Shown in pieces: positions 2,358 through 30,522 of a stretch of 64,000 nt of DNA; positions within the stretch are counted from its first letter, which is position 1, and each line of letters opens with the position of its first letter. This stretch comes from an uncultured Planctomycetota bacterium. GTDB lineage: Bacteria > Planctomycetota > Phycisphaerae > Sedimentisphaerales > UBA12454. Position numbers and translations under genes: made by a program. The notes below the pieces were generated by a model, which had not been told where the DNA came from, made no database searches, and saw nothing but the letters and a program-made list of their open reading frames with translations. The stretch spans positions 30,285-94,284 of the forward strand of contig CAINDG010000041.1 of assembly GCA_903847315.1 (NCBI GenBank), written 5' to 3'.

Positions 2358-3665
2358 TCAAACACAAACCGGCTGGCTGACAAGCTGTTCATATATTTGT
2401 CTGCACTTTTCAGCGGCGTCTTCCCATTTGAGTTTTCTGACTTCGAAGTTTCCATGTTCCTTCAATGTCATCTGCAGAGGCGGATATTTCAATACAGCGA
2501 CAATCTTGTTGGCTATTTCGTTTACATCCCAGAAATCCGCTTTGAGCACGTGCGTCAGAACTTCCGATACGCCGCTTTGCTTGCTTATCAGCACCGGCAC
2601 ATCGTGGTTGAGCGCTTCGAGCGGAGCTATGCCGAACGGCTCCGATACGCTGGGCATAACATAAAGGTCCGCTCGTTCGTAAACTTTGCGGACTTCTTCG
2701 CCTCTTAAAAAGCCTGTGAACAGTATCTTGCTGCCGATACCGAGTTCGGCTGCAAGTTCAATTGTCTGTCGCATCATATCGCCGGAGCCTGCCATAACGA
2801 ATTTGACGTTGTCCATAACCTCAAGGACTTTTTTAGCGGCGGCGAGGAAATATTCCGGTCCTTTCTGCATCGTGATTCTGCCGAGGAACAGAACAATTTT
2901 TTCGTCTTTATTTATTCCTATTTTGCCGAAGTTGAAACCGTTGCCGTTTCTTTCGATTCCATTGTAAACAACATCCACTTTTTCACCGTCTATGCCGTAC
3001 CTGGCGAGAATTATATTTTTTGTCAGGTAGCTTACCGCGATTATTCTGTTGGCGGCGTGCATTCCGGCCCGCTCGATATCGTAAATCATCTGGTTGACGT
3101 TTTCGCCGCTGCGGTCGAATTCCGTCGAGTGCACATGTATGACAAGAGGCTTGCCGGTAACAGCGGCTACGGCAATTCCGGCTGGATATGTCATCCAGTC
3201 ATGGGCGTGAATAACGTCAAAATCCTCCTGCAGCGCCAGTTTTACAGCCGAGGCGGCGTACCTGTGAACTTCAGCGTACATATCGCCTGCATAATGAGCG
3301 TTGCAATCGAGCGATTCCGCTCCGATAGTCACTGTACTGGACCGTTTTTGTTTGGCCCGTATCATATCCTCGATTTCATGCCGGTAACTTTCGGCTGTGG
3401 CGTAGGGTTTCAGGGCGGAGTCTATTGTCTTGAATTTTATGTTTTTAAGTTCGTTTTCATCGAGGACGATCTGGCTGGTAGTTATATCGGCAGGGGTTCG
3501 CATATTGACGTGTGTTGAGAGTTTGTCTGTATGTATCGTCCGAGGCAGAACGAACGTTATTTCAAGTCCCAGCTTGCTCATTGCCTTGGTCAAGCCATAG
3601 CATGCCGTACCTAATCCGCCGCTGATAAAAGGCGGAAATTCCCAACCAAGCATAAATATCTTCAC
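2358..3665 (-). CDS. GT4/GT5-type glycosyltransferase (glycogen-synthase-like)
   Basis: The ORF contains KIFMLGWEFPPFISGGLGTACYGL and the C-terminal EPFGIAPLEA motif of retaining GT-B transferases. I prefer the GTG start at 3665, which is preceded by GAGGGG. The track start at 3707 is the alternative. Confidence 0.8.
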   Translation of the reverse strand: MKIFMLGWEFPPFISGGLGTACYGLTKAMSKLGLEITFVLPRTIHTDKLSTHVNMRTPADITTSQIVLDENELKNIKFKTIDSALKPYATAESYRHEIEDMIRAKQKRSSTVTIGAESLDCNAHYAGDMYAEVHRYAASAVKLALQEDFDVIHAHDWMTYPAGIAVAAVTGKPLVIHVHSTEFDRSGENVNQMIYDIERAGMHAANRIIAVSYLTKNIILARYGIDGEKVDVVYNGIERNGNGFNFGKIGINKDEKIVLFLGRITMQKGPEYFLAAAKKVLEVMDNVKFVMAGSGDMMRQTIELAAELGIGSKILFTGFLRGEEVRKVYERADLYVMPSVSEPFGIAPLEALNHDVPVLISKQSGVSEVLTHVLKADFWDVNEIANKIVAVLKYPPLQMTLKEHGNFEVRKLKWEDAAEKCRQIYEQLVSQPVCV

Positions 3666-3892
3666 GAGACCCCTCGGCTTAAAGATAAACAAAGGAATAT
3701 AATCCACTTAGACATAATCTATAATCGGTTTTTAAACACCGCAGGTTTAATAAATTGTTCCTATAAAATCAATTTCCAGTATCGCCAGTCACGTTTTTGC
3801 GAGTTATAGGACGTTGCGCGTAAAAAAATATAAAAAAGACAAAAGTACTACAGAAAAACGCTGTCAGGCAAAAATTTGGTTAAGTATGGGCG

Positions 3893-3932
3893 AAAAAAAA
3901 CCGACTTCTATAGTTTTTTTATAGAGGCCGGT
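3893..3932 (-). terminator. Rho-independent terminator downstream of the histone-fold gene
   Basis: On the minus strand a 13-bp stem (ACCGGCCUCUAUA / UAUAGAAGUCGGU, one mismatch and one G-U pair) is followed by a U8 run. Confidence 0.6.
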
Positions 3933-3960
3933 TTCGTTGTTTTTTCCCGCAAAGAATCTG

Positions 3961-4155
3961 TTACAGGTCCTGCGGTTTCAATGTGCTTCTTCTGTTAGCT
4001 TTTGTCCGCTCGCAGCCATGATCAAGCATGCAATAAACCTTGTCGCTCAGAGCGCCAAGTGCATCGGCCGATGTCATCATCTTTTTGCTCTTAACGTAGG
4101 CTTTTACCTTGCTCGCTACAATCAAAGACTCTTTGCCACCTTTTTTCTTTGCCAT
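3961..4155 (-). CDS. Bacterial histone-fold DNA-binding protein (singlet, Bd0055/HBb-like, DUF1931-type)
   Basis: 64 aa: MAKKKGGKESLIVASKVKAYVKSKKMMTSADALGALSDKVYCMLDHGCERTKANRRSTLKPQDL. It aligns by eye to my recollection of the Bdellovibrio histone (VVTSKVKKLIKEKGQMNTSAETIDVLSKAIEQLCLKGVESAKADGRKTVMARDI). It has its own terminator. Confidence 0.7.
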   Translation of the reverse strand: MAKKKGGKESLIVASKVKAYVKSKKMMTSADALGALSDKVYCMLDHGCERTKANRRSTLKPQDL

Positions 4156-4408
4156 GCTATAAAACCTCCATGCAAATAAAAAAACTATTCCTTTTTATCG
4201 ACCTTTTACGACAGGGTCGATTTATAGGGCCTATTCTGAACACTTATAAGACCCTTTGCAACAAAAAAATCACTCAAAACTGCAAAATTTTGCACTTATT
4301 AGGCTGTTTCCACCCTTTTTTAGATTATACGACAGGGATTTTATGTCGAAAACAGCTTAGGAAACCGTTTAAAGGGCTTATCTTAGCGATATCGGGGATG
4401 GGAAAATT

Positions 4409-4762
4409 ATGAATGCCAATGACAGGAAAAAAGACGACCAGAGAATGGCTTTGGAGGACTATGTGACGATTGCCATCGCCGAGGATATTGACCTTGCAAA
4501 CGAATACCGGGACATACTCGTAAAGCATGATATTCCCGCTGTAACCGCGACCCAGCGAAGCTATTCTTCAGCGGTACTCGGTACAGCGGTGATGGTTCCG
4601 GAAAATTATCTCGAACAGGCTCAGGAAATTATCGAGTCGCAGCAGAACTTTGACAATTTCCTCGATGACGCCTTCAATGACCCCGACAACTGGAATAACG
4701 AAGCTGACATTGATGAATTAGAAGACCGTGAAAGTTTTGATGATGACGACAATAATATTTGA
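4409..4762 (+). CDS. Hypothetical protein, DUF2007-like fold with a strongly acidic C-terminal tail
   Basis: 117-aa ORF. The core has a beta-alpha-beta-like pattern (YVTIAIAEDIDLANEYRDILVKHDIPAV...VMVPENYLEQAQEII). The tail is DELEDRESFDDDDNNI. Confidence 0.5.
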   Translation: MNANDRKKDDQRMALEDYVTIAIAEDIDLANEYRDILVKHDIPAVTATQRSYSSAVLGTAVMVPENYLEQAQEIIESQQNFDNFLDDAFNDPDNWNNEADIDELEDRESFDDDDNNI

Positions 4763-4782
4763 TTCGATTTTGAATTAATGAG

Positions 4783-5151
4783 GTGATGAAAGTGGAAGAA
4801 TATAAAACACATGTTGAAAATTGCTTTTCGGCAAGACGCCAGGCCGCTGCGGACAGACGCACACAAAGCAGGAGAGAATCCGTTGCCGACAGAAGAACTG
4901 ACCTTGATAGACGTCGCGGCCCCGGCAGGAGACGCTCCGAAGACCGCAAGGCCGCCGAAGAAGGCCAGATGACAGATGAACAGTTCGAGTTCGTTATGGC
5001 CGTCGACCAGTATAAGAAGCTCAACTCAAAACCTTTCCCGAGCTGGACGGAAATTCTTGAGGTTATAAAAGCGCTGGGCTATCGAAAAGTGGCTGAGCCC
5101 TGTTCCCTCAAACAGCTTGAAAATCATGAATCTTCAGAACAAAACGGCTGA
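4783..5151 (+). CDS. Hypothetical protein with an Arg-rich repeated N-terminal half
   Basis: 122-aa ORF with repeated ADRRT/DRRR motifs and a C-terminal QFEFVMAVDQYKKLNSKPFPSWTEILEVIKALGYRK segment. The exact start is uncertain (GTG 4783, ATG 4786 or GTG 4792) after a GAGG. Confidence 0.5.
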   Translation: MMKVEEYKTHVENCFSARRQAAADRRTQSRRESVADRRTDLDRRRGPGRRRSEDRKAAEEGQMTDEQFEFVMAVDQYKKLNSKPFPSWTEILEVIKALGYRKVAEPCSLKQLENHESSEQNG

Positions 5152-5233
5152 GAATTTCTACCGCATTTAACCACCATCAGCGCAGCGGCGAATTTGATTC
5201 AAATTTGCTGCCGGCTGTTTGCCATCTTCACTA

Positions 5234-5262
5234 TTGACAATTTCTAATATTTAGCTGATAAT
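5234..5262 (+). promoter_or_regulatory. Sigma70-like promoter for the PEGA lipoprotein gene
   Basis: TTGACA (5234-5239), 17-nt spacer, GATAAT (5257-5262), about 58 nt upstream of the ATG. Confidence 0.45.
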
Positions 5263-5320
5263 TCGGCGGTTCTCCCGGCGTTGCGTATCGCGGCAGGGAG
5301 GCTTAATTTAGGAGATTTTT

Positions 5321-5758
5321 ATGTTAGTACGGAAACTGCCGAATGTCGCATTAATTATCTTGTGCGGTATGATTTGCCTCTGCTCAGGATGCGTGGAAAG
5401 AAAGATTACCATAATAACCGAACCTGCCGGAGCTCTTGTATCGCTTAACGACGAGGAAATCGGTGCATCGCCTGTCACCGTCGGTTTTGAATGGTACGGC
5501 GACTACAGCGTCAGGATTACAAAGGAAGGTTTCCAAACCTTAAAGACTCATCAGGATTTAAAGCGGCCGCTGCGTGACAGAGCTCCGTTTGATTTGTTTG
5601 ACGATATTTTCAGCAAGAGGACCGACGAATATACCTGGAAATTCAAACTTGAGCCGTACAAACAGCTCTCAAAAGAGGAGATGATAGAAGACGCGAAAAA
5701 ACTGCAAAAACAGACTGCCGAAGAAATGGCGCAGCCGATTATGAAGAAGAAAAAATAA
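5321..5758 (+). CDS. PEGA-domain lipoprotein
   Basis: Signal peptide with lipobox LCSGC. The PEGA-like motif is TEPAGALVSLNDEEIGASPVTV followed by YSVRITKEGFQT. Confidence 0.7.
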   Translation: MLVRKLPNVALIILCGMICLCSGCVERKITIITEPAGALVSLNDEEIGASPVTVGFEWYGDYSVRITKEGFQTLKTHQDLKRPLRDRAPFDLFDDIFSKRTDEYTWKFKLEPYKQLSKEEMIEDAKKLQKQTAEEMAQPIMKKKK

Positions 5759-5833: not shown

Positions 5834-8800
5834 TTATTGAGTAAAAATAGCGTTATTATTTGTGTCAGCCGCTCCGGCACCGGCCTGCACTGCCGCTGCA
5901 TCGATATTGGCCGGTACTGTAAGTACGAATGTAGAACCTTTGCCTTTTTCGCTGGTCAGGGTAATTTCACCGCCGAGAAGTTCGGCTATTCTTTTGCTTA
6001 TAGTAAGGCCGAGTCCCGCTCCGCCATATTTGCGGGATAAAGTCCCGTCTTCCTGAGTAAAGGATTCAAATATTTTTTCCTGACACTCAGAGGCGATGCC
6101 GACTCCGGTATCTGTCACCTCGAAACGAACGAATGACTCGCCGTTCCTGTCTTCCATTGAAATGTTCACATAAACATATCCCTGCTCTGTAAACTTTATG
6201 GCGTTATTTACAATATTGACCAGGCACTGTTCCAGGTGGTCGGCGTCTGTGACAATATTAGCCGGAACAACACCTTTTCTGCAGATTGCCAGCTCCAGTT
6301 TCTTTTTCGCCGCCAGAGGATGCATCATAGCTTCCACTCTGGCTATAATATCTTCAAGCGGACACGGCGCTATCTTGATATCCATCTTGTCGGCCTCAAT
6401 CTTGGAAAGGTCCAGAACATCGCCAAGCAGATGTAAAAGTTGCCTGCCGCTGCCGCAAACCGTCTCTATATATTTTTTCTGTTCTCCTGCAAGTTCGTCG
6501 GCCAGCAGGTCGCTGAACCCGATAATAGAATTCAGCGGTGTCCTGATTTCGTGGCTCATAGTGGCCAAAAACTCGCTCTTGGCATCATTGGCGGCAACCG
6601 CCTTTTTCGTCATCAGGTTGGCCCGTTCAACGGCGTCTTCCAAATGCTTCTCTGCCAGTTTGTGTTCGGTAATATCCAATCCGGCAAAAATAATTCCACG
6701 TGACACATCCCGCCCGTCTAAAGTTGCCCCTGTAAGATATATATTCAGGACTTTGCCGTCTTTGTGCTGCCAGTTAACCTCTATTTCGCTCCTGCCTTTT
6801 TCGCTTAATTCCCGGTAGTATTGTTTGCCGACAAGGTTATATCCCTCGTCATTCTCATAAAATATACGGGTGTCCTTTCCGACAACTTCTTCTCTTTGAT
6901 GCCCGAGAAGCTGCAGAAGATAATCGTTTACCCATTGTATCTTTCTGCCGGTGGCAAAGCCTAAGCCCACAGGCACTGCGGTAGCGATACTCTTGAATGT
7001 ATTTTCACTGTTTCTCAGCGATTCCTCTGCCTGTTTGCGGCCGGTGATATCACGGACAATTGCCTGAATTATTGGTCGCCCTTCAATCTCAACGCAGTTA
7101 AGCGAAACTTCCGTATCGAATAGCGCCCCGTCGAGCCGCTTATGTGTCCACTCAAAAAACTGGGGCTCGCCTGCAAGCGCTGCACTGATTTTCTCAAGTG
7201 CTTTTTCATTTGAACGTCGGCCATCAGGCTGGGTTTCCGGCGAAAAACGAATCGGTGTTTGACCGACAATCTGTTCTCGCGCCACGCCGAACATTTCAAG
7301 TGTGCGTTCGTTGCAGTCGGTGAAGTATTCTTTCTCCATCAAAAAAATGGCATCGTTCGCCTGCTCAAAGAGAGCATGGTATCGTTTGCTGCCGTTCAGC
7401 ATTGCCTGCTCTGCCTGTTTGCGTTCGGTAATATCGCGTATCGTGCCGATGACACCGATTATTTGACCGCTGCTGTTCCGGTGCGGTGTGTAAGTCTCGA
7501 CTGCCCAGCCCATTTTTCCGGTTCGAGGGCTTTTATGTTCTATATCAGGAGAAGATACCGTTTCGCCTGTCAGCGCACGCTCAAGAAGTTTATCGATACC
7601 GCTTTCATGAAGAAGCGGAAAGAGTTCTAACGCGCTTTTGCCTATCACATCTCCCTTCTTCTTTCCGGTCATATTTTCCATAAACGGATTCCATTCCATG
7701 TATCGTAATTGCAGGTCGTAAACAACCACGCCTACGCCGGCGTTTGAGATTATTTCCTGGTTGAACCGAGAAACGTCTCGCAATTGGGTATCAGCATTTC
7801 TGCGCCCTTCCTCCAGCAGCTTCCGCGAGGTAATGTCTCTTATAAAATGTACCGTTTCAACAATTTCCTTGTTATCACCGAATACAGGACAGGTGGATAT
7901 TTCCAAATGTTTTCTAAGAGCCTTATAATAAATTTCTACTTTAGCCGGCTCGCCGGTCAATAAAGTTTTTCTCATGGGACAATTCTCAGGAGGCTCTTTT
8001 GTCCCGTGCACCAACTCGCAGCATCGCATCCCAATAAGTTCCTCCGGCCGCTTTCCGAATATATCAGCGAAAGCCTTATTGACTGTCTTAAGTCTGTTAT
8101 CCCGGTCTACAACCGAAACCATATCGGTAATAGAATTGAATACCTTGTTCCATTCTTTAGTTTCACCATATTTTTGCCGGTAAAAGCTGGCGGTTCGTTG
8201 CTTCCAGAGAAAACCCACGCTGACCCCTGCTCCTGCCAGCAGAATGCCGATGAAAATTATAATCGCCAATAGTCTTTGCGTTAAAGGCGTATATATTTCG
8301 GAGGTATCCATTCGCGTAACCAGAAACCACGGCGAATCCGGCACGGCTCGGACATCCGCTATGACCGGTTTTCCTCGGTAATCTGTTCCTTCTGTGATGC
8401 CCTCATATCCCAAAACCGCTTTGACCGCAGGCAAAGTTTTATTCGTAAGGGAATACCTCAGCTTAAGAGCGGTACCGCTTTGGAACTTAAGTTCATTCAG
8501 AAATTGTACGTTATTTCCATCTTTGCGGACAAGCAGAGTTTCCGCTGAAAAACTCGGCATCGGCATGTTTTCGATAAATGGATACAAGTAAACCTTGGGG
8601 TCGATTCGCATCGCCAGAACGCCAATCGTCCTGCTCTCGTCTTTATCCAGAATGGGAACAAGAACTTTCAGATAGATTTTCTGATTTTGTTCATTCCAGT
8701 AAAAATCTTCAAAAACCATCTGGCCTGTTTGCAGAAGTTTGGATGTGTGTTCGGAAATATATGAAATAGGCCGCTCAGGACTGTCCGGAACCATAATTAT

Positions 8801-10109: not shown

Positions 10110-11012
10110 TCAGCTTTCGTATTTTTGCCACAAATGCTGCCTGACGGCCAGCCAATAGCCCCAAACAGCCCCCAGACAGGCAAACGCCACCATTTGAACC
10201 GGCAGTACCGCGGCGATGGAATTAGCGAAAAAAACGGCCGGCCAGGTATTGACGAGATGTTCAATGATAGGTTTCTTGATATACATTGTTATGGAATAAT
10301 AACTTAATAGCGCCGAAGTTGCCGCCGGCCATAAAAAATTTACGCCGATAAAATACTTCATAATAAATCCGCAAATCATAAAGCTAATCAGAACAGCAAA
10401 GGCAATCTGTAAATTAGCGGGCTGACCTACAACTCGGCCAAGTTTGGCGTCAGGATAACTTATGTCGCCTGCAATAAGATTTATGAGAAGGCCTCCGACA
10501 AAAATAGTTGCGATAACCGCGATTGGAATCGCCGCGAAATCAGGCAGCTTAAAAACGGCGCCAATATTATCCATCAGATTCGCCGGTTCTCTTTTGAAAA
10601 TTTTATCTGCCGCGATTGCGCCGAAACAGCAGCAGCCGACAATCGCCATCCACACAAATGCCTCCAGCCGGAGCGATGAATATACCGCTAATCTATCCTG
10701 TGCGGCCGGAGCAGCTTGAAAGACGGTTGACAATGCTGCGCTTCGCAATGCCCAGACAGCCATGCCTGCCGGGGCGGCAAGTATTCCGATTTGCATTCCG
10801 AAAGGTGTGCAAACTGCCGAGGCCAGAAAGCCGGCTGCAAATGAAAGGCCGGCGCAAATTAATAAATCGCCGATGCTGATAGTGCCGGACAAAATGGCGA
10901 AGATGCCGCCGGCGGGGGGACTGATAAGATGCCACGGCAAAAGACCAAGCAGCACAACGCCGATGGCAAATGCCGCTGCGATTCTAAATTTCATCGTCCA
11001 CGAAAGTTCCAT
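10110..11012 (-). CDS. Polytopic inner-membrane protein, function unknown
   Basis: 300-aa ORF with about 8 hydrophobic segments. I recognise no family motif. Confidence 0.55.
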   Translation of the reverse strand: MELSWTMKFRIAAAFAIGVVLLGLLPWHLISPPAGGIFAILSGTISIGDLLICAGLSFAAGFLASAVCTPFGMQIGILAAPAGMAVWALRSAALSTVFQAAPAAQDRLAVYSSLRLEAFVWMAIVGCCCFGAIAADKIFKREPANLMDNIGAVFKLPDFAAIPIAVIATIFVGGLLINLIAGDISYPDAKLGRVVGQPANLQIAFAVLISFMICGFIMKYFIGVNFLWPAATSALLSYYSITMYIKKPIIEHLVNTWPAVFFANSIAAVLPVQMVAFACLGAVWGYWLAVRQHLWQKYES

Positions 11013-11202
11013 ATACCCTTATTTTAGCCGCAAAGCTTCAAAGACACAAAGGGAATTTTCAACTTTTAACATCGAACTTCCAATAACCAATAAATGTAAC
11101 GGTTATCAGTATATTGCTATTAGAATAAAAGGCGGATACCATATTCGGATTGTAAGTAAAAAATATTAGCCAAAACATTTTTTTTATTTGGAGAAATGGA
11201 CA

Positions 11203-12261
11203 ATGAAAAAGCTGAAATTCAATAAAGGTATCGTGATTTTGGCTGCGGCTGTTATCCTGACAATGGCGTTTGGCTCTCTCGCCTGGGGCGCAGAAAAAAA
11301 GTCGTCATATAAGCTGATAAAGAAAATTCCCATCGGCGGTGATGGCGGATGGGATTATCTCACCGTTGACAACAGTACCAATCGTCTTTACATTTCACAC
11401 CAGAGCCATGTGGTTGTTTTTGACACCGTCGGCGAAAAGGTAATCGGCGATATTAACAATACGCCGGGCATCCACGGGATAGTACTTGCGCACGCATTTA
11501 ATAAAGGCTTCATAAGCAACGGCGGCGATAATTCAGTAACCGTTTTTGACCCGAACACATTGAAAGAGACAGGCCGAATCAAAGTTGGCGCCAAGCCGGA
11601 TGCCATTATGTTCGACCATTCGACAAATCACATTTTCGTATTTAACGGCGGGAGCAAAGATTGCAATGTTATCGATCCCAACACCAATAAAATCATCGGC
11701 TCTATATCGCTGGGAGGCAGGCCGGAATTTGCAGTCTCCGATAGAAACGGCCGGGTGTTCGTCAATATCGAGGATAAGAATGAAGTCGCCGTGATAGACG
11801 CCAGGAAAATGACCGTAACAAATAACTGGCCGCTGGCACCCGGTGAAAAGCCTACTGGACTGGCCATAGACCGCAAAAATATGCGGCTCTTTTCGACCTG
11901 CTCCAACGGCAAGATGTTAGTAGTCGATTGCAACAGCGGCAAAGTTGTCGCGACGCTGGAAATCGGCAAAGGTTCTGATGCCGCGGCGTTTGACTCAGAG
12001 GCAGGAGTTGCGTTTAGTTCCAACGGACAGGATGGTACGCTGACAATTGTCAAGGAAGAGACGCCGGAGAAGTTCAAGGTTATCCAGACCGTAGCGACTG
12101 CCCCGGGGGCAAGGACAATGGCCCTTAATTCGAAAACGCATATGATATATCTGGTGACGGCAAAACCCAAGCCACCTGCTCCGGGTCAGGAACAGGGCCG
12201 CCGCAGGAGCTATGAGCCTGGAACATTTGAATTGCTGATAGTCGGACCATCGGAAAAATAA
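11203..12261 (+). CDS. Secreted YVTN/YncE-like beta-propeller repeat protein
   Basis: The signal peptide is MKKLKFNKGIVILAAAVILTMAFGSLAWG. Repeated approximately 40-aa units fit this family (GIVLAH...NSVTVFD, PDAIMFD...DCNVID, PEFAVSD...VAVID, PTGLAID). I chose the ATG at 11203 after GGAGAA. Confidence 0.7.
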   Translation: MKKLKFNKGIVILAAAVILTMAFGSLAWGAEKKSSYKLIKKIPIGGDGGWDYLTVDNSTNRLYISHQSHVVVFDTVGEKVIGDINNTPGIHGIVLAHAFNKGFISNGGDNSVTVFDPNTLKETGRIKVGAKPDAIMFDHSTNHIFVFNGGSKDCNVIDPNTNKIIGSISLGGRPEFAVSDRNGRVFVNIEDKNEVAVIDARKMTVTNNWPLAPGEKPTGLAIDRKNMRLFSTCSNGKMLVVDCNSGKVVATLEIGKGSDAAAFDSEAGVAFSSNGQDGTLTIVKEETPEKFKVIQTVATAPGARTMALNSKTHMIYLVTAKPKPPAPGQEQGRRRSYEPGTFELLIVGPSEK

Positions 12262-12282
12262 CGACTCATACGAGTCGGGTGT

Positions 12283-12780
12283 TTAGCCCTGGAATCTGGC
12301 GATTAGGAATGCTCCGATGAAGTGGCTGGCTGCGACGACAAGAACTGCAATGATAGTATGAGTAAGAATTGCAGAATAAGGGCTTATTTTTCTCTGTCTT
12401 GATATTGCGTAGGACATAACGGTTAATATTAACAAACCCCAGATGACTGAACAGACGGCCGCAAATTTAATAGGCAGAAAGATTATCAGGGCAATAAAAG
12501 TCGATGAAACAAACAACCGGGCAAGGAAGTTAGTCAGCGTAGAAAGCCAGACCTCTTTTTTACTGAGGTTCTCTGACTCCTGATAGATATGGATGCCGAA
12601 AGAATCAGACATATTGTCGGCTAGCGCGATGACCAAAAGTGCGCCGATGATGCTTAATTTTGGATGCGTCAGCGTATCAAGGCCGACGATAATGCCAAGA
12701 TTAGTGATGATGGCCGAAGTGGCGCCGAAACTGAATCTGGTCTGAGTCGGCCTGACGGTATTTTTCGAATCGTTTTCCAT
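12283..12780 (-). CDS. VIT1/CCC1-family-like membrane protein (short form)
   Basis: 165 aa with FSFGATSAIITNLGIIVGL and ALADNMSDSFGIHIYQE motifs and 4-5 TM segments. The family assignment is from memory. Confidence 0.5.
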   Translation of the reverse strand: MENDSKNTVRPTQTRFSFGATSAIITNLGIIVGLDTLTHPKLSIIGALLVIALADNMSDSFGIHIYQESENLSKKEVWLSTLTNFLARLFVSSTFIALIIFLPIKFAAVCSVIWGLLILTVMSYAISRQRKISPYSAILTHTIIAVLVVAASHFIGAFLIARFQG

Positions 12781-12863
12781 ATCGCGTTATTCTATCGTAG
12801 AGCAAACTGTCCGTAAAGGATTAGCTTGCCCCAGGCTGGTAAATATGAAACAGCGGGCTAAAC

Positions 12864-13301
12864 TTATTTAGCAATTTTGATTTGGGCGGGATTTTCGAGA
12901 ACAATTTCCGGGCGGCCCTGATAGGCAGTTATAAAGCCGGTGATTTCCACATTCTTTCCCGTGTACTGGTCCGGATTAGGAAATTTAGAAGCGACAGACT
13001 CGAAAATTACCGCGCCAAAAGGACAGGATTTATAATCGGCGCAGAAATTTATAAATATAGTTCCTTTTTCAGATGTATAAACGTGATTGACTTTGCCCGT
13101 TACACAAACAGTTGTGCCGATGTAATCGGGAGCATCAGAAAACTTTATGCGTGTCGAAGCCGGCCGTACTGACTGGGCCGGTTGAGCGTTTTCGGAACCG
13201 GCCAAAGACTGTCTTTTCGACAGCCAGATTGCCGCGGCGATTATTAACGCCGCAGCGATAATGGTTATGGATATCTTATTTTTCTCAAGAAAAGCTTTCA
13301 T
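12864..13301 (-). CDS. Membrane-anchored OB-fold-like protein, function unknown
   Basis: 145 aa with an N-terminal TM anchor. The C-terminal region is VCVTGKVNHVYTSEKGTIFINF...GKNVEITGFITAYQGRPEIVLENPAQIKI, a pattern seen in OB-fold anchor proteins. Confidence 0.45.
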   Translation of the reverse strand: MKAFLEKNKISITIIAAALIIAAAIWLSKRQSLAGSENAQPAQSVRPASTRIKFSDAPDYIGTTVCVTGKVNHVYTSEKGTIFINFCADYKSCPFGAVIFESVASKFPNPDQYTGKNVEITGFITAYQGRPEIVLENPAQIKIAK

Positions 13302-13435
13302 ATAATATCCTTGTCTTTATATCCTGACAAATTATAGCGTTAAAAAGATGAAAAGGTAAAGGGGAAAGTGTATAATTCTATAGCTTATTGCAGCAGGAAG
13401 ACATTAAAACAGGCACAATCGGAAAGGAACCGAAA

Positions 13436-13696
13436 ATGAAAAAGATTCTAAAACGGCTTTTGCCGGTGCTGGCGGTATTGGCCGTACTGGCACTGGCTGG
13501 TTGCGATGATGACAAAGGCCCTATGCAGACAGCAGGCGAAAAGGTGGATAATGCCGCCGAGACGACCGGCCACGCCGTCAAAGGCGCCGCTAAGACGACC
13601 GGCAACGCTGTTAAAGGTGCCGCCCAGAAAACCGGCAGCGCTGTCAAAGGCGCCGCTGAAAAGACCGGCGAGGCAGTGGAAAACGTGGTCAAGTAG
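13436..13696 (+). CDS. Small lipoprotein with tandem 11-residue repeats
   Basis: I chose the start at MKKILK (RBS GGAAAGGAA). The lipobox is LAGC. Four repeats have the form TTGxAVKGAAxK. Confidence 0.65.
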   Translation: MKKILKRLLPVLAVLAVLALAGCDDDKGPMQTAGEKVDNAAETTGHAVKGAAKTTGNAVKGAAQKTGSAVKGAAEKTGEAVENVVK

Positions 13697-13780
13697 AACG
13701 ACGAACCCCGCACCTGTTTATTTTATCGTAGCGATATAGGAATAATCGAATAGCAAATTGGTACCGGACATAGCGCAAAA

Positions 13781-13807
13781 AAAGGCTCGCCTCCTGGGCG
13801 AGCCTTT
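13781..13807. terminator. Bidirectional terminator between the lipoprotein gene and csp
   Basis: AAAGGCTCGCC-TCCT-GGGCGAGCCTTT hairpin flanked by A-runs and T-runs. Confidence 0.65.
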
Positions 13808-13833
13808 CTATTTTTGCAAGTCTTGCTGATACG

Positions 13834-14127
13834 TTAGGCTTTGGTTAACTCTACATCTGTTACATCCGGGGCTATCTCTTCTAACGATGGGATTTCCACT
13901 GCGGCGACTGGGGCAACTTTTGCTGCGTACGGCGTTACGTTGTTGGCACATGGGCCTTTTTTACCCTGTCCGGTCTCGAAATTAACCTTCTGGTTTTCCT
14001 CGAGATTTGCGTAACCGACGGTCTTGACTTCCGAGTGGTGGACGAACAAATCATTGCCGCCGCCATCCGGAGTAATAAAACCATATCCCTTTTCTGAATT
14101 AAACCATTTTACTGTTCCTGTACTCAC
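13834..14127 (-). CDS. Cold-shock domain protein with a roughly 30-aa C-terminal extension
   Basis: GTG start at 14127, preceded by AAGGAGAG. The sequence (V)STGTVKWFNSEKGYGFITPDGGGNDLFVHHSEV contains the RNP1 and RNP2 motifs. The longer track ORF extending to 14313 is rejected. Confidence 0.85.
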   Translation of the reverse strand: MSTGTVKWFNSEKGYGFITPDGGGNDLFVHHSEVKTVGYANLEENQKVNFETGQGKKGPCANNVTPYAAKVAPVAAVEIPSLEEIAPDVTDVELTKA

Positions 14128-14233
14128 TTTACTCTCCTTAGCCTGTCTATAGGCCGTTAAACATAGTATCTCTCGATTTGTTTTATTGGAAGCATACACT
14201 TGAGAGATGGAAGGATACACACCAAAAAAACTT

Positions 14234-14261
14234 ATCATACAAACTGGATTTACAAAGTCAA
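14234..14261 (-). promoter_or_regulatory. Sigma70-like promoter for csp
   Basis: On the minus strand: TTGACT, 16-nt spacer, TATGAT. This gives a 5' UTR of about 100 nt, as is usual for csp genes. Confidence 0.4.
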
Positions 14262-14582
14262 CAAAAATATTAAATATCTTTAAATAACCTGTCCCTTTTT
14301 GCCAAACGCGCAATTAATTTCCTGCGCTTTTGGCTGAAATGAAAAAATTTGCATCCTTTATTGACAAGGGTTTATGAAAAAAATGCCAAAATTTTTGACG
14401 AATTTTCGCAAAAAACGCGCAAGTTTTTATGTAATACGGAGGCGCTAGTTATTGCGTCTTTCGGCTGCGGTTGTGATGCTCGTTTCGTCTAACGTCTTAC
14501 GTCTTACGTAATCCAATCGAGCCTCGCAACCGTTACCGTCCTACGTTTTTTATATTTTCTTCATTTTTCCCGGAGCCTTATT

Positions 14583-15338
14583 ATGTCATTACCAAAGCAA
14601 AAAATAGATTACCTGATGTTCAAAGTTCGAGGCCGAATTGTAAAAGTTGACCCCGATATCTATTATAAAATCTTCAGCGCCAAACACGAACCCCCTTACA
14701 GAAGATACAATGGTGATATTGTCGAAATGCGGCTTTCCGATGGCTATCCGATAATCATCCGCGGCACAAATCCGAGAAAGTACATTCAGCTTTCACGGTT
14801 TGTAATGAACGCCCCAAAAGGCCGGCTCGTTGACCATATAAATGGCGACCGGCTCGATAACCGCAGAAAAAATCTGCGAATCGTAACCGCAAGGCAAAAC
14901 GCCCTGAACAGAAAATCAAAACCCTCGACCGGTTTTTTTGGTGTTACAATTAACCGCGTCAAGGGAAGGATTTATTGCTCAGGACGATTCCAGTTAAGCA
15001 CCGGCAAAGCGCCGGCGTTTAATCTGCCCGATTGTCCTGAAAACCGAATCATCGCCGCCTTTGCCCACGATAAATTTGTTCTGCAGGCCGGAGAAGAGGA
15101 ATACGCGCCGCTGAATTTTCCCTGTTTCAAAAATGAACCGTTCAAAAGTTATCTTCTGGAACAGGATTTGAGGGCGCTGGCGACAAGGCCGCGGAAATTA
15201 CCAGAGGTTTGCGGCAGCAGGGACGTCAGCACGGTTGTGCAGATGAACAGCATTGGTCGGACAGAGCGACCGGCAGATGCCGCAGCCGTAGCAGCGGGTC
15301 TGGTCGATAACAATTTTTTTGTTGGCGGCGCTGTATGA
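14583..15338 (+). CDS. HNH endonuclease with a C-terminal AP2-type DNA-binding domain
   Basis: The HNH_3-like motif is LVDHINGDRLDNRRKNLRIVTARQNALN. The AP2-like segment is GFFGVTINRVKGRIYCSGRFQ...IIAAFAHDKFVLQAGEEEYAPLNF. The last approximately 47 codons overlap the convergent Fe-S gene and may be fortuitous read-through. Confidence 0.7.
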   Translation: MSLPKQKIDYLMFKVRGRIVKVDPDIYYKIFSAKHEPPYRRYNGDIVEMRLSDGYPIIIRGTNPRKYIQLSRFVMNAPKGRLVDHINGDRLDNRRKNLRIVTARQNALNRKSKPSTGFFGVTINRVKGRIYCSGRFQLSTGKAPAFNLPDCPENRIIAAFAHDKFVLQAGEEEYAPLNFPCFKNEPFKSYLLEQDLRALATRPRKLPEVCGSRDVSTVVQMNSIGRTERPADAAAVAAGLVDNNFFVGGAV

Positions 15339-16043
15339 TATTGCACCAAACTGGCAGAGGCGCATACATTGCCGACAGCCCGTGCACTTGTTGCTGTCAG
15401 CGTCGGCGACATACTCGCCGCGGAACATTACCGGCACACCGGCGGTTACGGTGCATCGCATTGCAAGGCAGTCGGCACGGTCGCAGTTGCATATTCCGGC
15501 GATGAACGGCGTGCCGAAAGTCCATACCGTATGGCATAGACCCTGCTTTTCATGGTCGCGGAAAGCGGTCAGGGCCTGTTCTTTTGTGAGTTTTTCCATA
15601 GCGGAGATGTCGGGTCCGCCCAGGAAACTGCTGTCGAGGCCGTCGATAATTTTGCCAAATGCCCCGCCATCTGGGTACAAAGATACGCCGTAACAGAATC
15701 GATGTTCTTTTCCGAGAATGGCGTGCCGGCACATGCAGGCGACTCGGACAATCGAGTTTACAAAATCAAAGATTCGCTCGATGTCCTCGATGGGTACTAC
15801 CTGGCCGAAATGATTTTTCTTCATTTTGCCGGTGACAAGCCGCCCGATGACGGCCTTTATGATTGCAGGGGTCTTGCTGAGAGAATCTATTTTGCGGATA
15901 CTTTTTTTGAGTTCGTCAGTTTGCGTAAAGAATTTTTTGATAAATTTGCGTCTGCGGACGTCATTGAGCAGGTCGTCAGAATAATTCGCGGCCTGAAGAT
16001 ACCATTTTTTCCCTTCGCCGTGCTTTAAGCAAAATTCACACAT
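15198..16043 (-). CDS. Cys-rich 4Fe-4S dicluster-domain protein, conserved hypothetical
   Basis: 281 aa. It has two ferredoxin-type motifs (CTGCRQCMRLC and CYGCGICRSLCP) plus N-terminal MCEFC, CMC and CNCDRADC cysteines. Confidence 0.7.
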   Translation of the reverse strand: MCEFCLKHGEGKKWYLQAANYSDDLLNDVRRRKFIKKFFTQTDELKKSIRKIDSLSKTPAIIKAVIGRLVTGKMKKNHFGQVVPIEDIERIFDFVNSIVRVACMCRHAILGKEHRFCYGVSLYPDGGAFGKIIDGLDSSFLGGPDISAMEKLTKEQALTAFRDHEKQGLCHTVWTFGTPFIAGICNCDRADCLAMRCTVTAGVPVMFRGEYVADADSNKCTGCRQCMRLCQFGAISYSAANKKIVIDQTRCYGCGICRSLCPTNAVHLHNRADVPAAANLW

Positions 16044-16104
16044 TTGACAGGTCTCCGGAATACAATTCTTCCCCCGTAATGAGGGTTATAGATAGCATTG
16101 TAGG

Positions 16105-17049
16105 TTAAAGGGTTACATAGTCATATAAATATTCATAAATTTCTCTATCAAAGAAATTTCTTTCAAAATATGTCGAATTGACGTTGGGTTTAAACCTTGC
16201 TATCTTATTCATGGCAGTGTTTTTGGCCGATAAAGACATTCCGAACGTAGTTCCCCCAATCTCCTTGTTGATGCGTGGACTCAAGTTGCCAATAAGTCGA
16301 GCTAAATTCGTTGGGTGATAACCAAATCCCAAAAAATAAATGCGTTCGGCTTCGTTTATCAATTGGTGAGCTTGATCAAACTCTTCATTTTTTTCAATAT
16401 TTTCGTGTATAATATTTATGTTCTTACTACCATTGCGAATCATTAAATCTTTTTGATCAGGATAATCATGCATATCATAGGGAATCTCTGAGTATTTAGA
16501 TTTTTCCCAAGGAAGCCGGCCAAGCTTGCCATGCACATGGACTATCGGAATCTTGTTAAGTTTTTCAGCACATTCTTCAATATTTTTTCCATAAGCAAAG
16601 CATAAAGCCGCAGAAAAATAATACTCAAGCGACCGGTCATAATTGAAAGTAATAATAGCAAGTTTATTTTGGTCGAACTCGTTGAATGAAATATTAAGTA
16701 GACTGAAAAGATGTTGATACCAATTATCTTTCATGGCTTTATCAAAAAGTTTAAGCGACTTTTCAAAATCTAACAAAGCAGCAACGATTACTTCCTTGCC
16801 TATATCGAGGAATTCTGTACGGTGTTCAAGAAACTCATCGACGGAAGAGCGCCCGGAATAAATTAAATGTTCTCTGAATTTTTGAATTAGCTCTTCATCA
16901 TAGCCATGCCTTTTTAAAAGCACACATGTTTCTGATTGAATATCAAAAAGCATATTATCAATCAGGGCAACAAGATCTTTGCCGGAGGGAAACCCAAAAG
17001 GCATGCTTGCCCCAGCTCCTAAAATTAAAACTGTTTTTTGATTTATCAT
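16105..17049 (-). CDS. Compact SIR2-like (SIR2_2 / defence-type) domain protein, putative NAD-binding or NADase effector
   Basis: 314 aa. The motifs are LILGAGASMPFGFPSGKDL, ITFNYDRSLE, VHVHGKLG and IYFLGFGYHPTN, in the order expected for SIR2_2. The gene is AT-rich. Confidence 0.75.
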   Translation of the reverse strand: MINQKTVLILGAGASMPFGFPSGKDLVALIDNMLFDIQSETCVLLKRHGYDEELIQKFREHLIYSGRSSVDEFLEHRTEFLDIGKEVIVAALLDFEKSLKLFDKAMKDNWYQHLFSLLNISFNEFDQNKLAIITFNYDRSLEYYFSAALCFAYGKNIEECAEKLNKIPIVHVHGKLGRLPWEKSKYSEIPYDMHDYPDQKDLMIRNGSKNINIIHENIEKNEEFDQAHQLINEAERIYFLGFGYHPTNLARLIGNLSPRINKEIGGTTFGMSLSAKNTAMNKIARFKPNVNSTYFERNFFDREIYEYLYDYVTL

Positions 17050-17100
17050 TTTAAGGAGGACCTTATTTCCTCATTTTTGTTATTGCGTAAATTATACAAA

Positions 17101-17427
17101 TCATCCTTCCTGTAATAATGCCGTAGATAAATCATTGAGGATATTTGCAATATTACTTTTATCTGTAAGGTGAGGATATTTGTGTTTTAATAATTCTATT
17201 ACCAGATATGGAACGGGCATGCCAAATACCTTAGCAATCGCTTCTAATGAATTCATAGAAATGGATAATTGGCCGTTTTCATAACGGCTTAATAAACTGC
17301 GGCTGATTTTAGTTTTGCTTTCAAGATCACGTAAACTAATTTTTTTCTCCTGCCTTAGACGTTTTATAACCTCTCCACTGGATTTGAGTTTAAATTTCGT
17401 TAAATCTTTCATCAATAATTTCCGCAT
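17101..17427 (-). CDS. XRE-family helix-turn-helix protein
   Basis: IKRLRQEKKISLRDLESKTKISRSLLSRYENGQLSISMNSLEAIAKVFG is a classic HTH_3 pattern. An alternative start lies at 17412. Confidence 0.75.
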   Translation of the reverse strand: MRKLLMKDLTKFKLKSSGEVIKRLRQEKKISLRDLESKTKISRSLLSRYENGQLSISMNSLEAIAKVFGMPVPYLVIELLKHKYPHLTDKSNIANILNDLSTALLQEG

Positions 17428-17623
17428 TATCAGCCAGGATTAATGCTCTGGCTATAAGATGATTAATTTCATTCCTGTCAGAATACGGGTCCTGCGATAA
17501 ATTTTCTGCTTTACTTAGTAAGCCAACGGCTTCCCTTGCTAAGCCTGTTTTATAAGTGTCAACAATTGCAGGAAGCGAATTTTTTAATTGTTCTTTAAGA
17601 TGTTTTATTGCGTCTGTGAGCAT
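17390..17623 (-). CDS. Small all-helical hypothetical protein, first gene of the cassette
   Basis: ATG at 17623 after GGAG; the track gives a TTG at 17638. The protein is 77-82 aa with no recognisable motif. Its 3' end overlaps the HTH gene by 23-38 nt. Confidence 0.45.
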   Translation of the reverse strand: MLTDAIKHLKEQLKNSLPAIVDTYKTGLAREAVGLLSKAENLSQDPYSDRNEINHLIARALILADNAEIIDERFNEI

Positions 17624-17984
17624 TGTTATGGTCTCCAAATAATATATATCCGGAGGCCATCCTACGTATCAGGCAACCTCCGGAATGGAATCGAAATCCT
17701 TCCGAAATTGCCTGATTAACGCAGGGCAAACAGCTACGAAAATCAGTGCTATTAATTTTCATTTTTTACTCTTTCAACCATTTGTTCGCCCATGCCACTT
17801 CTCTCACGACATTGCTGCTTTTTTCTCGGACCTATCTCGGTCCTGACAGCTAAAAGTTAATATAGTACTTGGTTCCGATTTTTGCAACCAAAAAATCGAT
17901 AGATTTTCCATAATTTTTTAAGTCATTGTAAATAAGCATGTTATAAAAGAAAAATTTTTGCTATTTTTAATTTTATTATGTTTA

Positions 17985-18248
17985 AACCTCAGAAAAAATC
18001 TGCGAATCGTAACTGCAAGGCAAAACGCCCTGAACAGAAAATCAAAAACCTCGACTGGTTTTATCGGCGTTACAATTAGCCGCATCAGGGGAAAGAATTA
18101 TTGCGTGGGATGGTTTCAAATCAGCAATGGCAGAGCCCCGTCATTCAGCATGCCCGATAGTCCCGAAAACAGAGTCATCGCCGCCTTTGTCCACGATAAA
18201 CTTGTTTTGCAGGCGAAAGAAGAGGAATACGCGCCGCTGAATAATTGA
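17985..18248 (+). pseudogene. 5'-truncated paralogue of the HNH-AP2 gene (AP2 part only)
   Basis: 17985-18242 aligns without indels to 14859-15116. The ends are near-identical and the middle is diverged. It encodes NLRIVTARQNALNRKSKTSTGFIGVTISRIRGK...EEEYAPLNN. The HNH N-terminal half and any credible start are missing. Confidence 0.65.
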
Positions 18249-18279: not shown

Positions 18280-18519
18280 ATGAACGATGACATCGAAAGA
18301 AATCTCGGTCCGCAGCCTATTGCGGGCATTATGACAAGGCTCAATTTAAAGCCGCACGATCTCGTAGCGGCTTTGCCGCCGCAGCAGCTTACGCATAAAA
18401 TGGTTTCAAGGGCCTGTAAAGGCAGAAAGCTGACCGACAAAAGCAAATCCAAGGTTCTAAATGCCCTAAACCTTGCCGCCAAAAAGAACTACACACTAAG
18501 CGATCTTTTTAACTACTAA
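18280..18519 (+). CDS. Small hypothetical protein
   Basis: 79-aa ORF with host-like composition and no recognised motif. Confidence 0.4.
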   Translation: MNDDIERNLGPQPIAGIMTRLNLKPHDLVAALPPQQLTHKMVSRACKGRKLTDKSKSKVLNALNLAAKKNYTLSDLFNY

Positions 18520-29181: not shown

Positions 29182-30522
29182 ATGTTCTCAAAAATTCTCA
29201 TAGCCAACAGAGGCGAAATAGCATTAAGAATAATTCGTGCCTGCCGTGAGCTGGGCATCGAAACGGTTGTCGTCTATTCCGAGGCCGATAGAAACGCTTC
29301 ATATATCGAGCTTGCCGACGAGGCAATCTGCATCGGCCCGGCAAGTCCTGCACAAAGTTATCTTAATATCCCGGCGATAATCAGCGCCGCTGAAGTTGCC
29401 GATGTCGATGCGATTCATCCCGGCTACGGATTTCTCGCGGAGAACGCGCATTTTGCCCAGATATGTCTGGACTGCGGGATAGCGTTTATCGGTCCGCGGC
29501 CGGAGTCGATGAGAATGCTCGGCGATAAAGTCGCGGCAAGAGAACTTGCGAAAAAAGCGCACGTTCCGGTTGTGCCCGGCTCGGACGGCCAGATAAAAGA
29601 TGAAAAAGAAGCAATCAAACTCGCCAACAAAATCGGATATCCGGTAATAGTAAAAGCGGCGGCGGGCGGCGGCGGCAGGGGAATGAGAGTTGCCCATAAC
29701 GATATAAGTCTGCGAAACGCATTTGCGACGGCAAGGGCTGAGGCGGAGTCTGCGTTTAAGGACGGCACGGTCTATCTGGAAAAATATATTATTGAACCGC
29801 GGCACGTTGAGGTGCAGATTATGGCCGACAAGTCCGGCAACGCATTGCATTTTTTTGAACGCGACTGCTCCATTCAGCGAAGACATCAGAAATTGATTGA
29901 AGAATCGCCCTGTCCGATACTTGACGAACGCACACGAGAAGAATTATGCAAGGCGGCACTGAAGGTGATAAAGGAAGCGAAGTACGAAAATGCCGCGACA
30001 GTCGAATTTCTGCTCGACCGCAATAAGAAATTTTATTTTATCGAGGTTAATACGCGAATTCAGGTTGAACATCCTGTTACGGAAATGGTTACGGGAATCG
30101 ACCTGATAAAGATGCAGCTTCGCGTGGCCGGCGGACAGAATATTAATTTAAAGCAGAGAGACATAACGCACAGCGGCGTTGCGATAGAATGCCGGATTAA
30201 TGCTGAGGACCCGGACCGTAACTTTGCGCCGTGTCCGGGGAAAGTTGATAAGTTTATCCTGCCCGGCGGAATGGGCGTAAGGGTCGATACGCATATTTAT
30301 CAGGGCGCAGTAGTCACGCCATATTACGATTCGATGATTGCGAAATTGATTGTTCATCGGCCGACAAGAGAAGAGGCGATAATAACGATGAAACGCGCTT
30401 TAAGCGAATTTAGAATCGGGCCAATCAAGACTACGATTCCAGCCTGCTTCAAAATCCTCTCGCACAATATGTATCTTCAGAATAAAGTCGATACAAGTTT
30501 TATAGAGCAGCATCTTTCCTAA
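29182..30522 (+). CDS. accC: Biotin carboxylase
   Basis: [21 protein letters not shown]..., an ATP-grasp domain, GGGGRGMRV, and [14 protein letters not shown]. Confidence 0.95.

Follow-up and report, generated by a model that had tools for sequence, protein, structure and literature searches.

A solo-type SIR2 gene behind a putative small helix-turn-helix regulator module in an uncultured planctomycete: a mosaic locus with an exchangeable cargo gene

The subject of this analysis is an AT-rich three-gene locus of an uncultured bacterium of the phylum Planctomycetota (Sedimentisphaerales, UBA12454), located in a 64,000-nucleotide (nt) stretch of DNA referred to below as the window (positions 30,285 to 94,284 of contig CAINDG010000041.1, NCBI GenBank assembly GCA_903847315.1). 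On the minus strand, three co-directional, closely spaced open reading frames (ORFs) encode, in this order of reading, a small helical protein, a protein with an XRE-type helix-turn-helix (HTH) domain and a SIR2-like protein of 314 amino acids (aa). The trio had been noticed in an earlier inspection of the letters and ORFs (hereafter, the sequence-only reading), where it was described as a tight unit and proposed as an undescribed defence or toxin module that degrades nicotinamide adenine dinucleotide (NAD). All three ORFs are present as described there. As a unit, the trio is not conserved: relatives of the SIR2-like protein have no recurrent neighbour, and the helical and HTH genes precede other genes elsewhere. 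The locus combines a regulator module and an exchangeable cargo gene, which are independent of each other, in a mosaic and does not represent a new three-protein SIR2 system; rather, a solo-type SIR2_2 gene has been captured in the slot of the module.

The features of the locus are listed in Table 1. The helical gene can be read from 17638, yielding a protein of 82 aa, or from 17623; the ATG at 17623 follows a GGAG Shine-Dalgarno sequence, is common to all relatives and is most likely the actual start. The HTH gene overlaps the helical gene and probably starts at the ATG at 17412, which is common to the relatives, not at 17427. The low G+C content to which the sequence-only reading drew attention is confirmed: the 1.9-kb block has a G+C fraction of 0.350 compared to the window mean of 0.455 (standard deviation 0.024 for windows of the same size), which places it 4.3 standard deviations below the mean and second lowest among 1242 same-size windows. 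The hand counts given in that reading (19 G+C in 16141-16200 and 37 in 15361-15420) are exact.

Table 1. Coordinates of the features of the locus in the window
Feature	Positions	Strand	Remarks
SIR2-like cargo gene, 314 aa	16105-17049	-	SIR2_2-class, probable NAD+-consuming enzyme (from sequence and model)
HTH-SIR2 junction	17052-17100	-	found at the window locus alone
XRE-family HTH gene	17101-17427	-	108 aa from 17427, 103 aa from 17412
Helical-protein gene	17390-17623	-	77 aa; predicted three-helix bundle
Hairpin B, alternative to hairpin A	17628-17660	-	RNAalifold
Hairpin A (the hairpin of the sequence-only reading)	17650-17683	-	CCGGAGG...CCTCCGG and inner CCT/AGG stem
Leader upstream ORF, 55 codons	17595-17762	-	conserved among module loci
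Promoter-like site and operator-like inverted repeat	17859-17889	-	consensus scan, alignment
5'-truncated HNH(-AP2) endonuclease pseudogene, divergent from module	17985-18242	+	nucleotide identity to full copy

The 314-aa protein is predicted to adopt the SIR2 fold and to be a compact member of the SIR2_2 class with a conserved NAD-site signature. Its AlphaFold2 model, built on 25 homologues, has a predicted local distance difference test (pLDDT) score of 91.6 and consists of a single domain without a zinc-ribbon insert. All top Foldseek matches of this model are SIR2 proteins, with SIR2-HerA of E. coli in the first place (E = 8e-6, template modelling (TM) score 0.47), followed by SPARSA, KomC, DSR2 and ThsA, and then by sirtuins. 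The PADLOC "SIR2" models match residues 2-250 at E = 5.7e-14, and many relatives at 40-60% identity have precomputed matches to the Pfam family SIR2_2 (PF13289). The four ordered SIR2_2 motifs quoted in the sequence-only reading are all present and strongly conserved across 120 relatives: GAGAS (residues 11-15) is kept in 116-117 of these, T-[FY]-N-Y-D-R-S in all 120 (including N136 and D138), H171 in 119, and GFG (residues 241-243) again in all. A profile search against Protein Data Bank sequences sets TFNYDR, which carries the Asn noted in the sequence-only reading, against TTNYDR of KomC, an NADase. As to the His, this low-scoring alignment places the catalytic H146 of KomC opposite H173, the canonical "HG" histidine, which is replaced by Tyr in 33 of the 120 relatives, whereas the near-invariant H171 is found two residues earlier in the same beta-strand (residues 171-173 are encoded at 16531-16539). 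The position of the catalytic His may be shifted in this family of ~310-aa SIR2 proteins. On the evidence of sequence and model, the protein is a probable NAD+-consuming enzyme.

Relatives of this protein are numerous. A protein search gave 2954 matches at E<=1e-3, almost all of them 290-330 aa long and annotated as hypothetical, and 480 loci were confirmed in species-representative genomes (185,579 species), which belong to Planctomycetota, Zixibacteria, Bacteroidota, Acidobacteriota, bacteria of the candidate phyla radiation and archaea. Distant relatives are encoded on ten IMG/VR (viral or prophage) contigs; the search of cultured phages yielded no match to the family, and the relatives on plasmids (of Rhizobium and Agrobacterium) are only ~25% identical to the window protein. 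Clustering of every ORF within 3 kb of the SIR2 gene at 85 loci revealed no recurrent neighbour, the biggest cluster being represented at 6 of these loci. Likewise, when 148 directly flanking genes were compared with Pfam and PADLOC, no family was encountered more than three times, and HTH_3 was found in 3 of the 148. Linkage to an HTH gene, as in the trio of the sequence-only reading, is sporadic at these loci, and the closest non-identical relative (68% identity) has no HTH gene upstream. These neighbourhood surveys, together with the locus of the nearest homologue, rule out a conserved three-gene SIR2 system, and the SIR2 gene of this family appears normally to stand alone. In some genomes (loci compared in this work carry L numbers), two solo SIR2 copies are located close to each other (3470-4363 and 7697-8590 in L037; 3243-5978 in L055), and in L060 (4005-5918) two such genes are adjacent, in tandem. 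These pairs recall FAM118A and FAM118B, which show higher NAD-processing activity in combination (PMC12700824).

The genes that flank the SIR2 genes in a scattered manner include restriction-modification methyltransferases, TIR, AbiP/putAbiC, AriA, PDC-S15 and FRG, as well as DUF4062; such conflict-type neighbours fit an accessory, conflict-related gene. They also bear on the explanation that the SIR2-like protein, under ordinary transcriptional control, serves as an NAD-dependent enzyme in housekeeping or regulation, for instance as a deacylase or an ADP-ribosyltransferase. The SIR2 folds do include deacylases, which are among the lower-ranked Foldseek matches, and some homologues, such as the one in L005, reside amid housekeeping genes, as the sequence-only reading had considered they might if it was wrong. 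However, the SIR2_2 class lacks the zinc module of the deacetylating sirtuins (PMC12700824), the closest structural matches are defence NADases, the family is distributed patchily across phyla (the above 480 loci), and some of its members belong to viral or prophage contigs. With restriction-modification, TIR, AbiP, AriA and PDC-S15 genes in the flanks in addition, a housekeeping role seems very improbable.

The other two proteins of the trio are far less common. The helical protein, called all-helical in the sequence-only reading, is indeed predicted by AlphaFold2 to consist of three helices (pLDDT 88.6). It has three homologues in an index of 5.8 billion proteins, and when 1.84 billion proteins were searched exhaustively with HMMER, only 5 representative clusters matched; comparison with Pfam and PADLOC gave no match. 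Wherever the helical gene was found, the same HTH gene came next. The HTH protein is clearly of the XRE type, as had been proposed, with a match to HTH_3 at E = 1.6e-13; among the PADLOC models, it matches capH (5e-9) and controller proteins (2e-5), and there is weak similarity to antitoxin models of the PezA, MqsA and HipB type. The copies in L091, L092 and L096 are 79-89% identical to that of the window, and their cargos differ or are unknown. The HTH gene is subject to strong purifying selection, with ratios of nonsynonymous to synonymous substitution rates (dN/dS) of 0.06-0.19 across six loci; for the helical gene, dN/dS is 0.2-0.5. Variability at the first, second and third codon positions is 0.25/0.17/0.36 in the helical gene and 0.16/0.07/0.36 in the HTH gene.

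Together with their putative promoter and operator and the leader, these two genes constitute a separate, rare module. The homologues of the helical protein and the close relatives of the HTH protein together gave nine distinct module loci: the window locus (of which L088-L090 are identical copies), L091, L092-95, L096, L097, L098, L127, L128 and L129. The named sources are metagenome-assembled genomes of Sedimentisphaerales and Anaerohalosphaeraceae, and the module is apparently confined to Sedimentisphaerales/Anaerohalosphaeraceae-like Planctomycetota. It is AT-rich at every locus, with a G+C fraction of 0.34-0.38 compared to 0.41-0.46 in the surroundings. A consensus scan detected a promoter-like TTGCAA-N17-TATATT at 17887-17859, and an operator-like palindrome, GGTTGCA-N5-CGGAACC in the window (17889-17871), lies over this promoter and overlaps the -35 element. 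The palindrome is perfect (GGTTGCA-N5-TGCAACC) in L092, L098 and L127, and the promoter-operator motif is kept at all nine loci, with the consensus GGTTGCA-N5-yGsAACC. It is the sole such site in the region, there being no second operator near the SIR2 gene, and would be the binding site of the HTH protein.

The leader of the module is ~230 nt long, with a conserved stretch that includes TCCGGAGRTTGCCTGA. The upstream ORF contained in it comprises 50-57 codons in the relatives and is open at all nine loci, the indels in L096 being multiples of three. Its last 29 nt are shared with the beginning of the helical gene, and it encloses hairpin A; the hairpin CCGGAGG...CCTCCGG of the sequence-only reading thus exists, at 17683-17650, and is not simply upstream of the first gene, as stated there, but inside the leader ORF. 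For this ORF, dN/dS is about 0.5-2, with unusually low dS, and variability is flat over the codon positions (0.18/0.18/0.21); with no codon periodicity and dN/dS near 1, the constraint acts on the nucleotides and not on a protein. Comparison of the predicted product with Pfam and PADLOC gave no match. A zinc-ribbon protein, suggested by a CxxC...C pattern and the frame-preserving indels, was considered and downgraded on the same grounds and because the Cys and His residues are not all kept in the nine sequences.

Two alternative structures are predicted for the leader. In six aligned sequences, every cell of hairpin A is paired, and its closing pair is G-C in four sequences, G-U in one and A-U in one. 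In hairpin B, AUGGCCUCC pairs with GGAGACCAU, and the 3' arm of hairpin A (CCUCC) is engaged with GGAG; hairpin B is thus predicted to mask the Shine-Dalgarno sequence of the helical gene and to be mutually exclusive with hairpin A. All cells of hairpin B are paired as well, and in L097 and L098 two pairs have changed from G-C to A-U on both sides; these compensatory GG-to-AA and CC-to-UU changes alter the amino acids encoded by the leader ORF. Judging by these patterns, the leader has the look of a device that couples or switches translation. The possibility that it belongs to a known RNA family was also considered and dropped, the whole window having no match to Rfam at gathering thresholds. 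An intrinsic terminator was rejected as an explanation of the hairpin: the U-tract is interrupted, it is absent in L097 and L098, and the scan found no minus-strand terminator there.

The comparison of the module loci also reveals where the two parts of the mosaic meet. In blastn alignments, the window is 86% identical to L091 over 17104-17968, 86% identical to L092 over 17107-17773 and 76% identical to L096 over 17106-17746, and in all three cases similarity stops at the HTH stop codon (17104-17107). On the other side, similarity to the solo SIR2 gene of L087 extends from 17051 to 16101. The true exchange boundary is the HTH stop codon. The sequence-only reading had instead taken the truncation point of the HNH-AP2 pseudogene, at the other edge of the AT-rich block, as evidence of insertion. 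The truncated copy is real: the fragment 17985-18242 has 84% nucleotide identity to 14859-15116 of the full copy (14583-15338). As an insertion scar, the truncation is ruled out by the syntenic locus L091, relative to which ~845 bp are missing from the window, namely the HNH 5' end and some of the intergenic DNA; because of this absence, the truncation does not mark an insertion boundary.

What follows the HTH gene differs from locus to locus. In the window, the SIR2-like gene begins after a gap of 51 nt. In L091, the HTH stop is overlapped by a defence-candidate gene for a PDC-M36A-like nuclease whose C-terminal half weakly resembles Mrr_cat; this cargo (3074-5440) is split by an insertion sequence (IS) element of the DUF4096 family, and its halves match PDC-M36A at 5e-23 and 1.5e-16. 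The cargo of L092, again after 51 nt, is an HEFGH M78 peptidase (capP, 1.3e-14; Peptidase_M78, 7.8e-10). L097 has a 225-aa protein with CxxC and a weak DUF4145 match (39 nt), L098 a 105-aa protein with no family assigned (2 nt), and L129 a 240-aa protein with two transmembrane segments (9 nt). At six of the nine module loci, a cargo gene of the same direction thus begins no more than 51 nt past the HTH stop or overlaps it, and these cargos are effector-like and unrelated to one another. In L127, the HTH gene is followed by an IS200-type transposase on the opposite strand and then by DUF5131; in L128, nothing obvious follows within 400 nt; and in L096 the contig ends.

A different explanation of the locus would be a type II or tripartite toxin-antitoxin system, in which a SIR2 toxin is bound and neutralised by the HTH protein, the helical protein or both, and the operon is autoregulated. 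NAD+-degrading toxins are known, RES being an example, and a small HTH gene with a larger enzyme encoded 51 nt downstream is the antitoxin-like order seen in systems such as HigA, MqsA, PezA and Xre-RES. The weak similarity of the HTH protein to antitoxin models points in the same direction, and the low G+C content, patchy distribution and apparent mobility would suit a selfish module. Against this, at least six unrelated proteins are encoded behind the helical gene and essentially one and the same HTH gene (79-89% protein identity at the aligned loci), and it is unlikely that one binding surface would neutralise all of them. Moreover, the HTH and SIR2 proteins are not co-conserved, and the SIR2 homologues at the 85 surveyed loci lack an adjacent conserved, antitoxin-like partner. 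A toxin-antitoxin system is therefore, in our view, improbable, and of the two options named in the sequence-only reading, toxin-antitoxin or repressor-controlled effector, it is the latter that we favour.

Another possibility is that the adjacency is coincidental, that is, a self-contained regulatory or addiction unit and an independently inserted SIR2 gene share the same island without a functional link. The module and the SIR2 gene do each occur without the other, and the junction between them holds an extended -10-like TGTATAAT at 17098-17091 that could serve the SIR2 gene as its own promoter. The surroundings are also of the kind that this explanation predicts. L091 is syntenic with the window in having tmk, an HNH gene and a match to window positions 10380-11014, and everything between the HTH stop (17101) and ~11014 (window 11014-17101) is wholly unlike L091, which identifies this part as a variable island; in addition, IS elements adjoin the module in L091 and L127. 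Yet coincidence does not readily account for a co-directional gene at or within 51 nt of the HTH stop in six of nine loci, for the break of similarity to L091, L092 and L096 precisely at the HTH stop codon, or for the result of the terminator scan of the 51-nt junction, which found none on the minus strand and a terminator-like match on the plus strand only. Coincidental adjacency is rather unlikely. The junction further contains a GAGGA-N7-TCCTC hairpin (17072-17056) just 5' of the SIR2 start codon.

The interpretation that we favour, with moderate confidence, is that of an operon autoregulated by its HTH protein, in which a slot for exchangeable effectors is occupied, in this genome, by a probable NADase. 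A dimer of the HTH protein would bind the operator and repress the whole operon, and translation of the leader ORF together with hairpin switching would serve to couple, or to adjust, how the helical and HTH genes are translated. Co-transcription would extend from the module to the cargo through the junction, in which no minus-strand terminator was found, and the SIR2 protein, once expressed and triggered, would consume NAD+ and arrest growth in the manner of known SIR2_2 effectors. The module would then be a transcriptional gate for a toxic effector and not a protein antitoxin tailored to SIR2. The HTH protein is most likely such a gate and not a dedicated antitoxin, which is the more plausible because the cargos found behind this one HTH protein are unrelated and number at least six. 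As a regulator of this kind is usually missing next to SIR2 homologues, the enzyme must also have its own means of staying inactive.

This interpretation builds on the anatomy, mosaic origin and conservation patterns of the locus and on the SIR2 fold and motifs, all of which are observed; a number of points weigh against it. Operator binding, co-transcription and NADase activity are steps that we infer. The putative promoter TGTATAAT in the junction could make the SIR2 gene independent of the module, and the absence of obvious co-directional cargo in L127 and L128 implies that the module can exist alone. Immune regulators known so far are usually divergent from their operons, whereas the module is co-directional with its cargo. 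The 314-aa protein scores 20 bits against PF13289, the profile that the sequence-only reading named for a check, and so remains below the gathering score of 24.5. The hairpin covariation, drawn from six related sequences, is suggestive only. Finally, an attempt to derive a function of the helical protein from its fold was dropped, as the fold search retrieved only generic three-helix bundles at E ~0.9 or higher.

A bolder conjecture, to which we attach little probability, is that the leader, three-helix protein and HTH protein form a portable chassis for sensing infection or stress, either via the helical protein or via the leader RNA switch. Any toxic single-gene effector placed after the HTH stop, be it a SIR2 NADase, a nuclease, a HEPN-like protein, a peptidase or a membrane protein, would thereby become an inducible abortive infection system; the adjacent homing-type HNH-AP2 endonuclease genes would aid the spread of the chassis, and the solo SIR2 proteins of ~310 aa would, each by a single gene, provide a widespread NADase defence that needs no partner.

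Proteins of the SIR2_2/SIRim class have the SIR2 Rossmann fold without the sirtuin zinc module (PMC12700824). In fold and NAD-site motifs, the window protein resembles the SIR2 proteins of SIR2-HerA (Nezha/Gao_19), KomC, SPARSA, DSR2 and ThsA as well as FAM118B; with the SIRim NADases, it has in common the GAGxS loop, (T)NYD(R), a His on the following strand and the lack of the zinc module. The relationship to the defence SIR2s is remote, with TM scores of about 0.4-0.5, 13-19% identity and a Pfam SIR2_2 match below threshold, and the near-invariant H171, two residues before the "HG" His, sets the family apart from them. Unlike SIR2-HerA, Thoeris, SPARSA and DSR1/DSR2, the 314-aa protein has no Macro or SLOG domain and no fused or large sensor domain. 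No HerA, TIR/ThsB or pAgo partner is recurrent at the 85 family loci, and no HerA, TIR or pAgo was recognised among the ORFs at ~9-21 kb of the window; profile searches of seven neighbour proteins gave HNH_3, Fer4, a weak RuvB_C or nothing, and the other ORFs of this interval were read by eye. The description in the sequence-only reading of a minimal SIR2 protein without a large partner accordingly holds, as does its statement that the trio cannot be assigned to a named system.

Regulator modules ahead of diverse immune operons have been described (bioRxiv 10.1101/2022.04.27.489752, PMC11662680, PMC13373217). The module is similar to CapH+CapP, CapW/BrxR, CapK+CapS and the controller (C) proteins of restriction-modification systems in possessing a small XRE HTH protein and a palindromic operator over its own promoter, and its HTH protein is likewise associated with several unrelated effectors, to which L092 adds a CapP-like M78 peptidase. 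It differs in being co-directional with, and directly 5' of, a single-gene cargo, and it adds a lineage-specific three-helix protein and a structured leader with an upstream ORF. In contrast to CapH/CapP, CapW and CapK/CapS, no partner of the protease, WYL-domain or kinase type accompanies the module in the window, which has no M78 gene; the pairing of an HTH protein with an M78 peptidase is seen in the sister locus L092, where the module HTH gene and the peptidase gene (6209-7318) make up a CapH/CapP-like pair. The small co-directional upstream XRE HTH gene and the palindromic operator are as in C-protein operons, from which the locus differs in that no methyltransferase was recognised among the ORFs at ~9-21 kb, seven of which were searched against Pfam.

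SIR2 effectors and HTH-regulated defence operons are established themes, and the module occurs in a narrow uncultured lineage. If the cargo-slot interpretation is true, the locus offers a compact natural case of effector swapping behind one conserved regulator, including an RNA leader with two alternative hairpins. A further outcome of the analysis is the large and so far uncharacterised family of minimal SIR2_2 proteins, which have neither a partner nor a sensor domain. How a bare ~310-aa SIR2 domain stays off and is then triggered is a question for SIR2 immunity and, alike, for the human FAM118 sirtuins.

Several neighbouring genes complete the picture. The Fe-S (iron-sulfur) protein gene at 15198-16043 on the minus strand was considered as a member of the cassette and excluded, being GC-rich (0.52) and unlinked to SIR2 or the module at other loci. 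The full-length HNH(-AP2) ORF (14583-15338, plus strand) runs ~140 nt into the 3' end of this convergent gene, and since its relatives cease to be similar near 15173-15197, the C-terminal tail resembles read-through beyond a junction formed by recombination. Four of the nine module loci (window, L091, L092 and L129) have a divergent HNH_3 gene upstream of the module. A 79-aa ORF (18280-18519, plus strand) located between the HNH fragment and tmk weakly matches a RuvB_C-like winged helix (E = 0.004); the identical contig L088 is the only other place where it was found. As for the sister loci, the genes beyond the M78 peptidase of L092 are convergent and encode an ABC transporter (ABC_tran/MlaE), so that no defence operon follows, and L091 carries an MNT/HEPN pair at 7397-8033. 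In L129 (2435-5694), two genes downstream of the module cargo, one for a Macro-domain protein and one for a 314-aa membrane protein that bears a zinc ribbon at its N terminus, sit between mlaE and the ABC-transporter ATPase gene.

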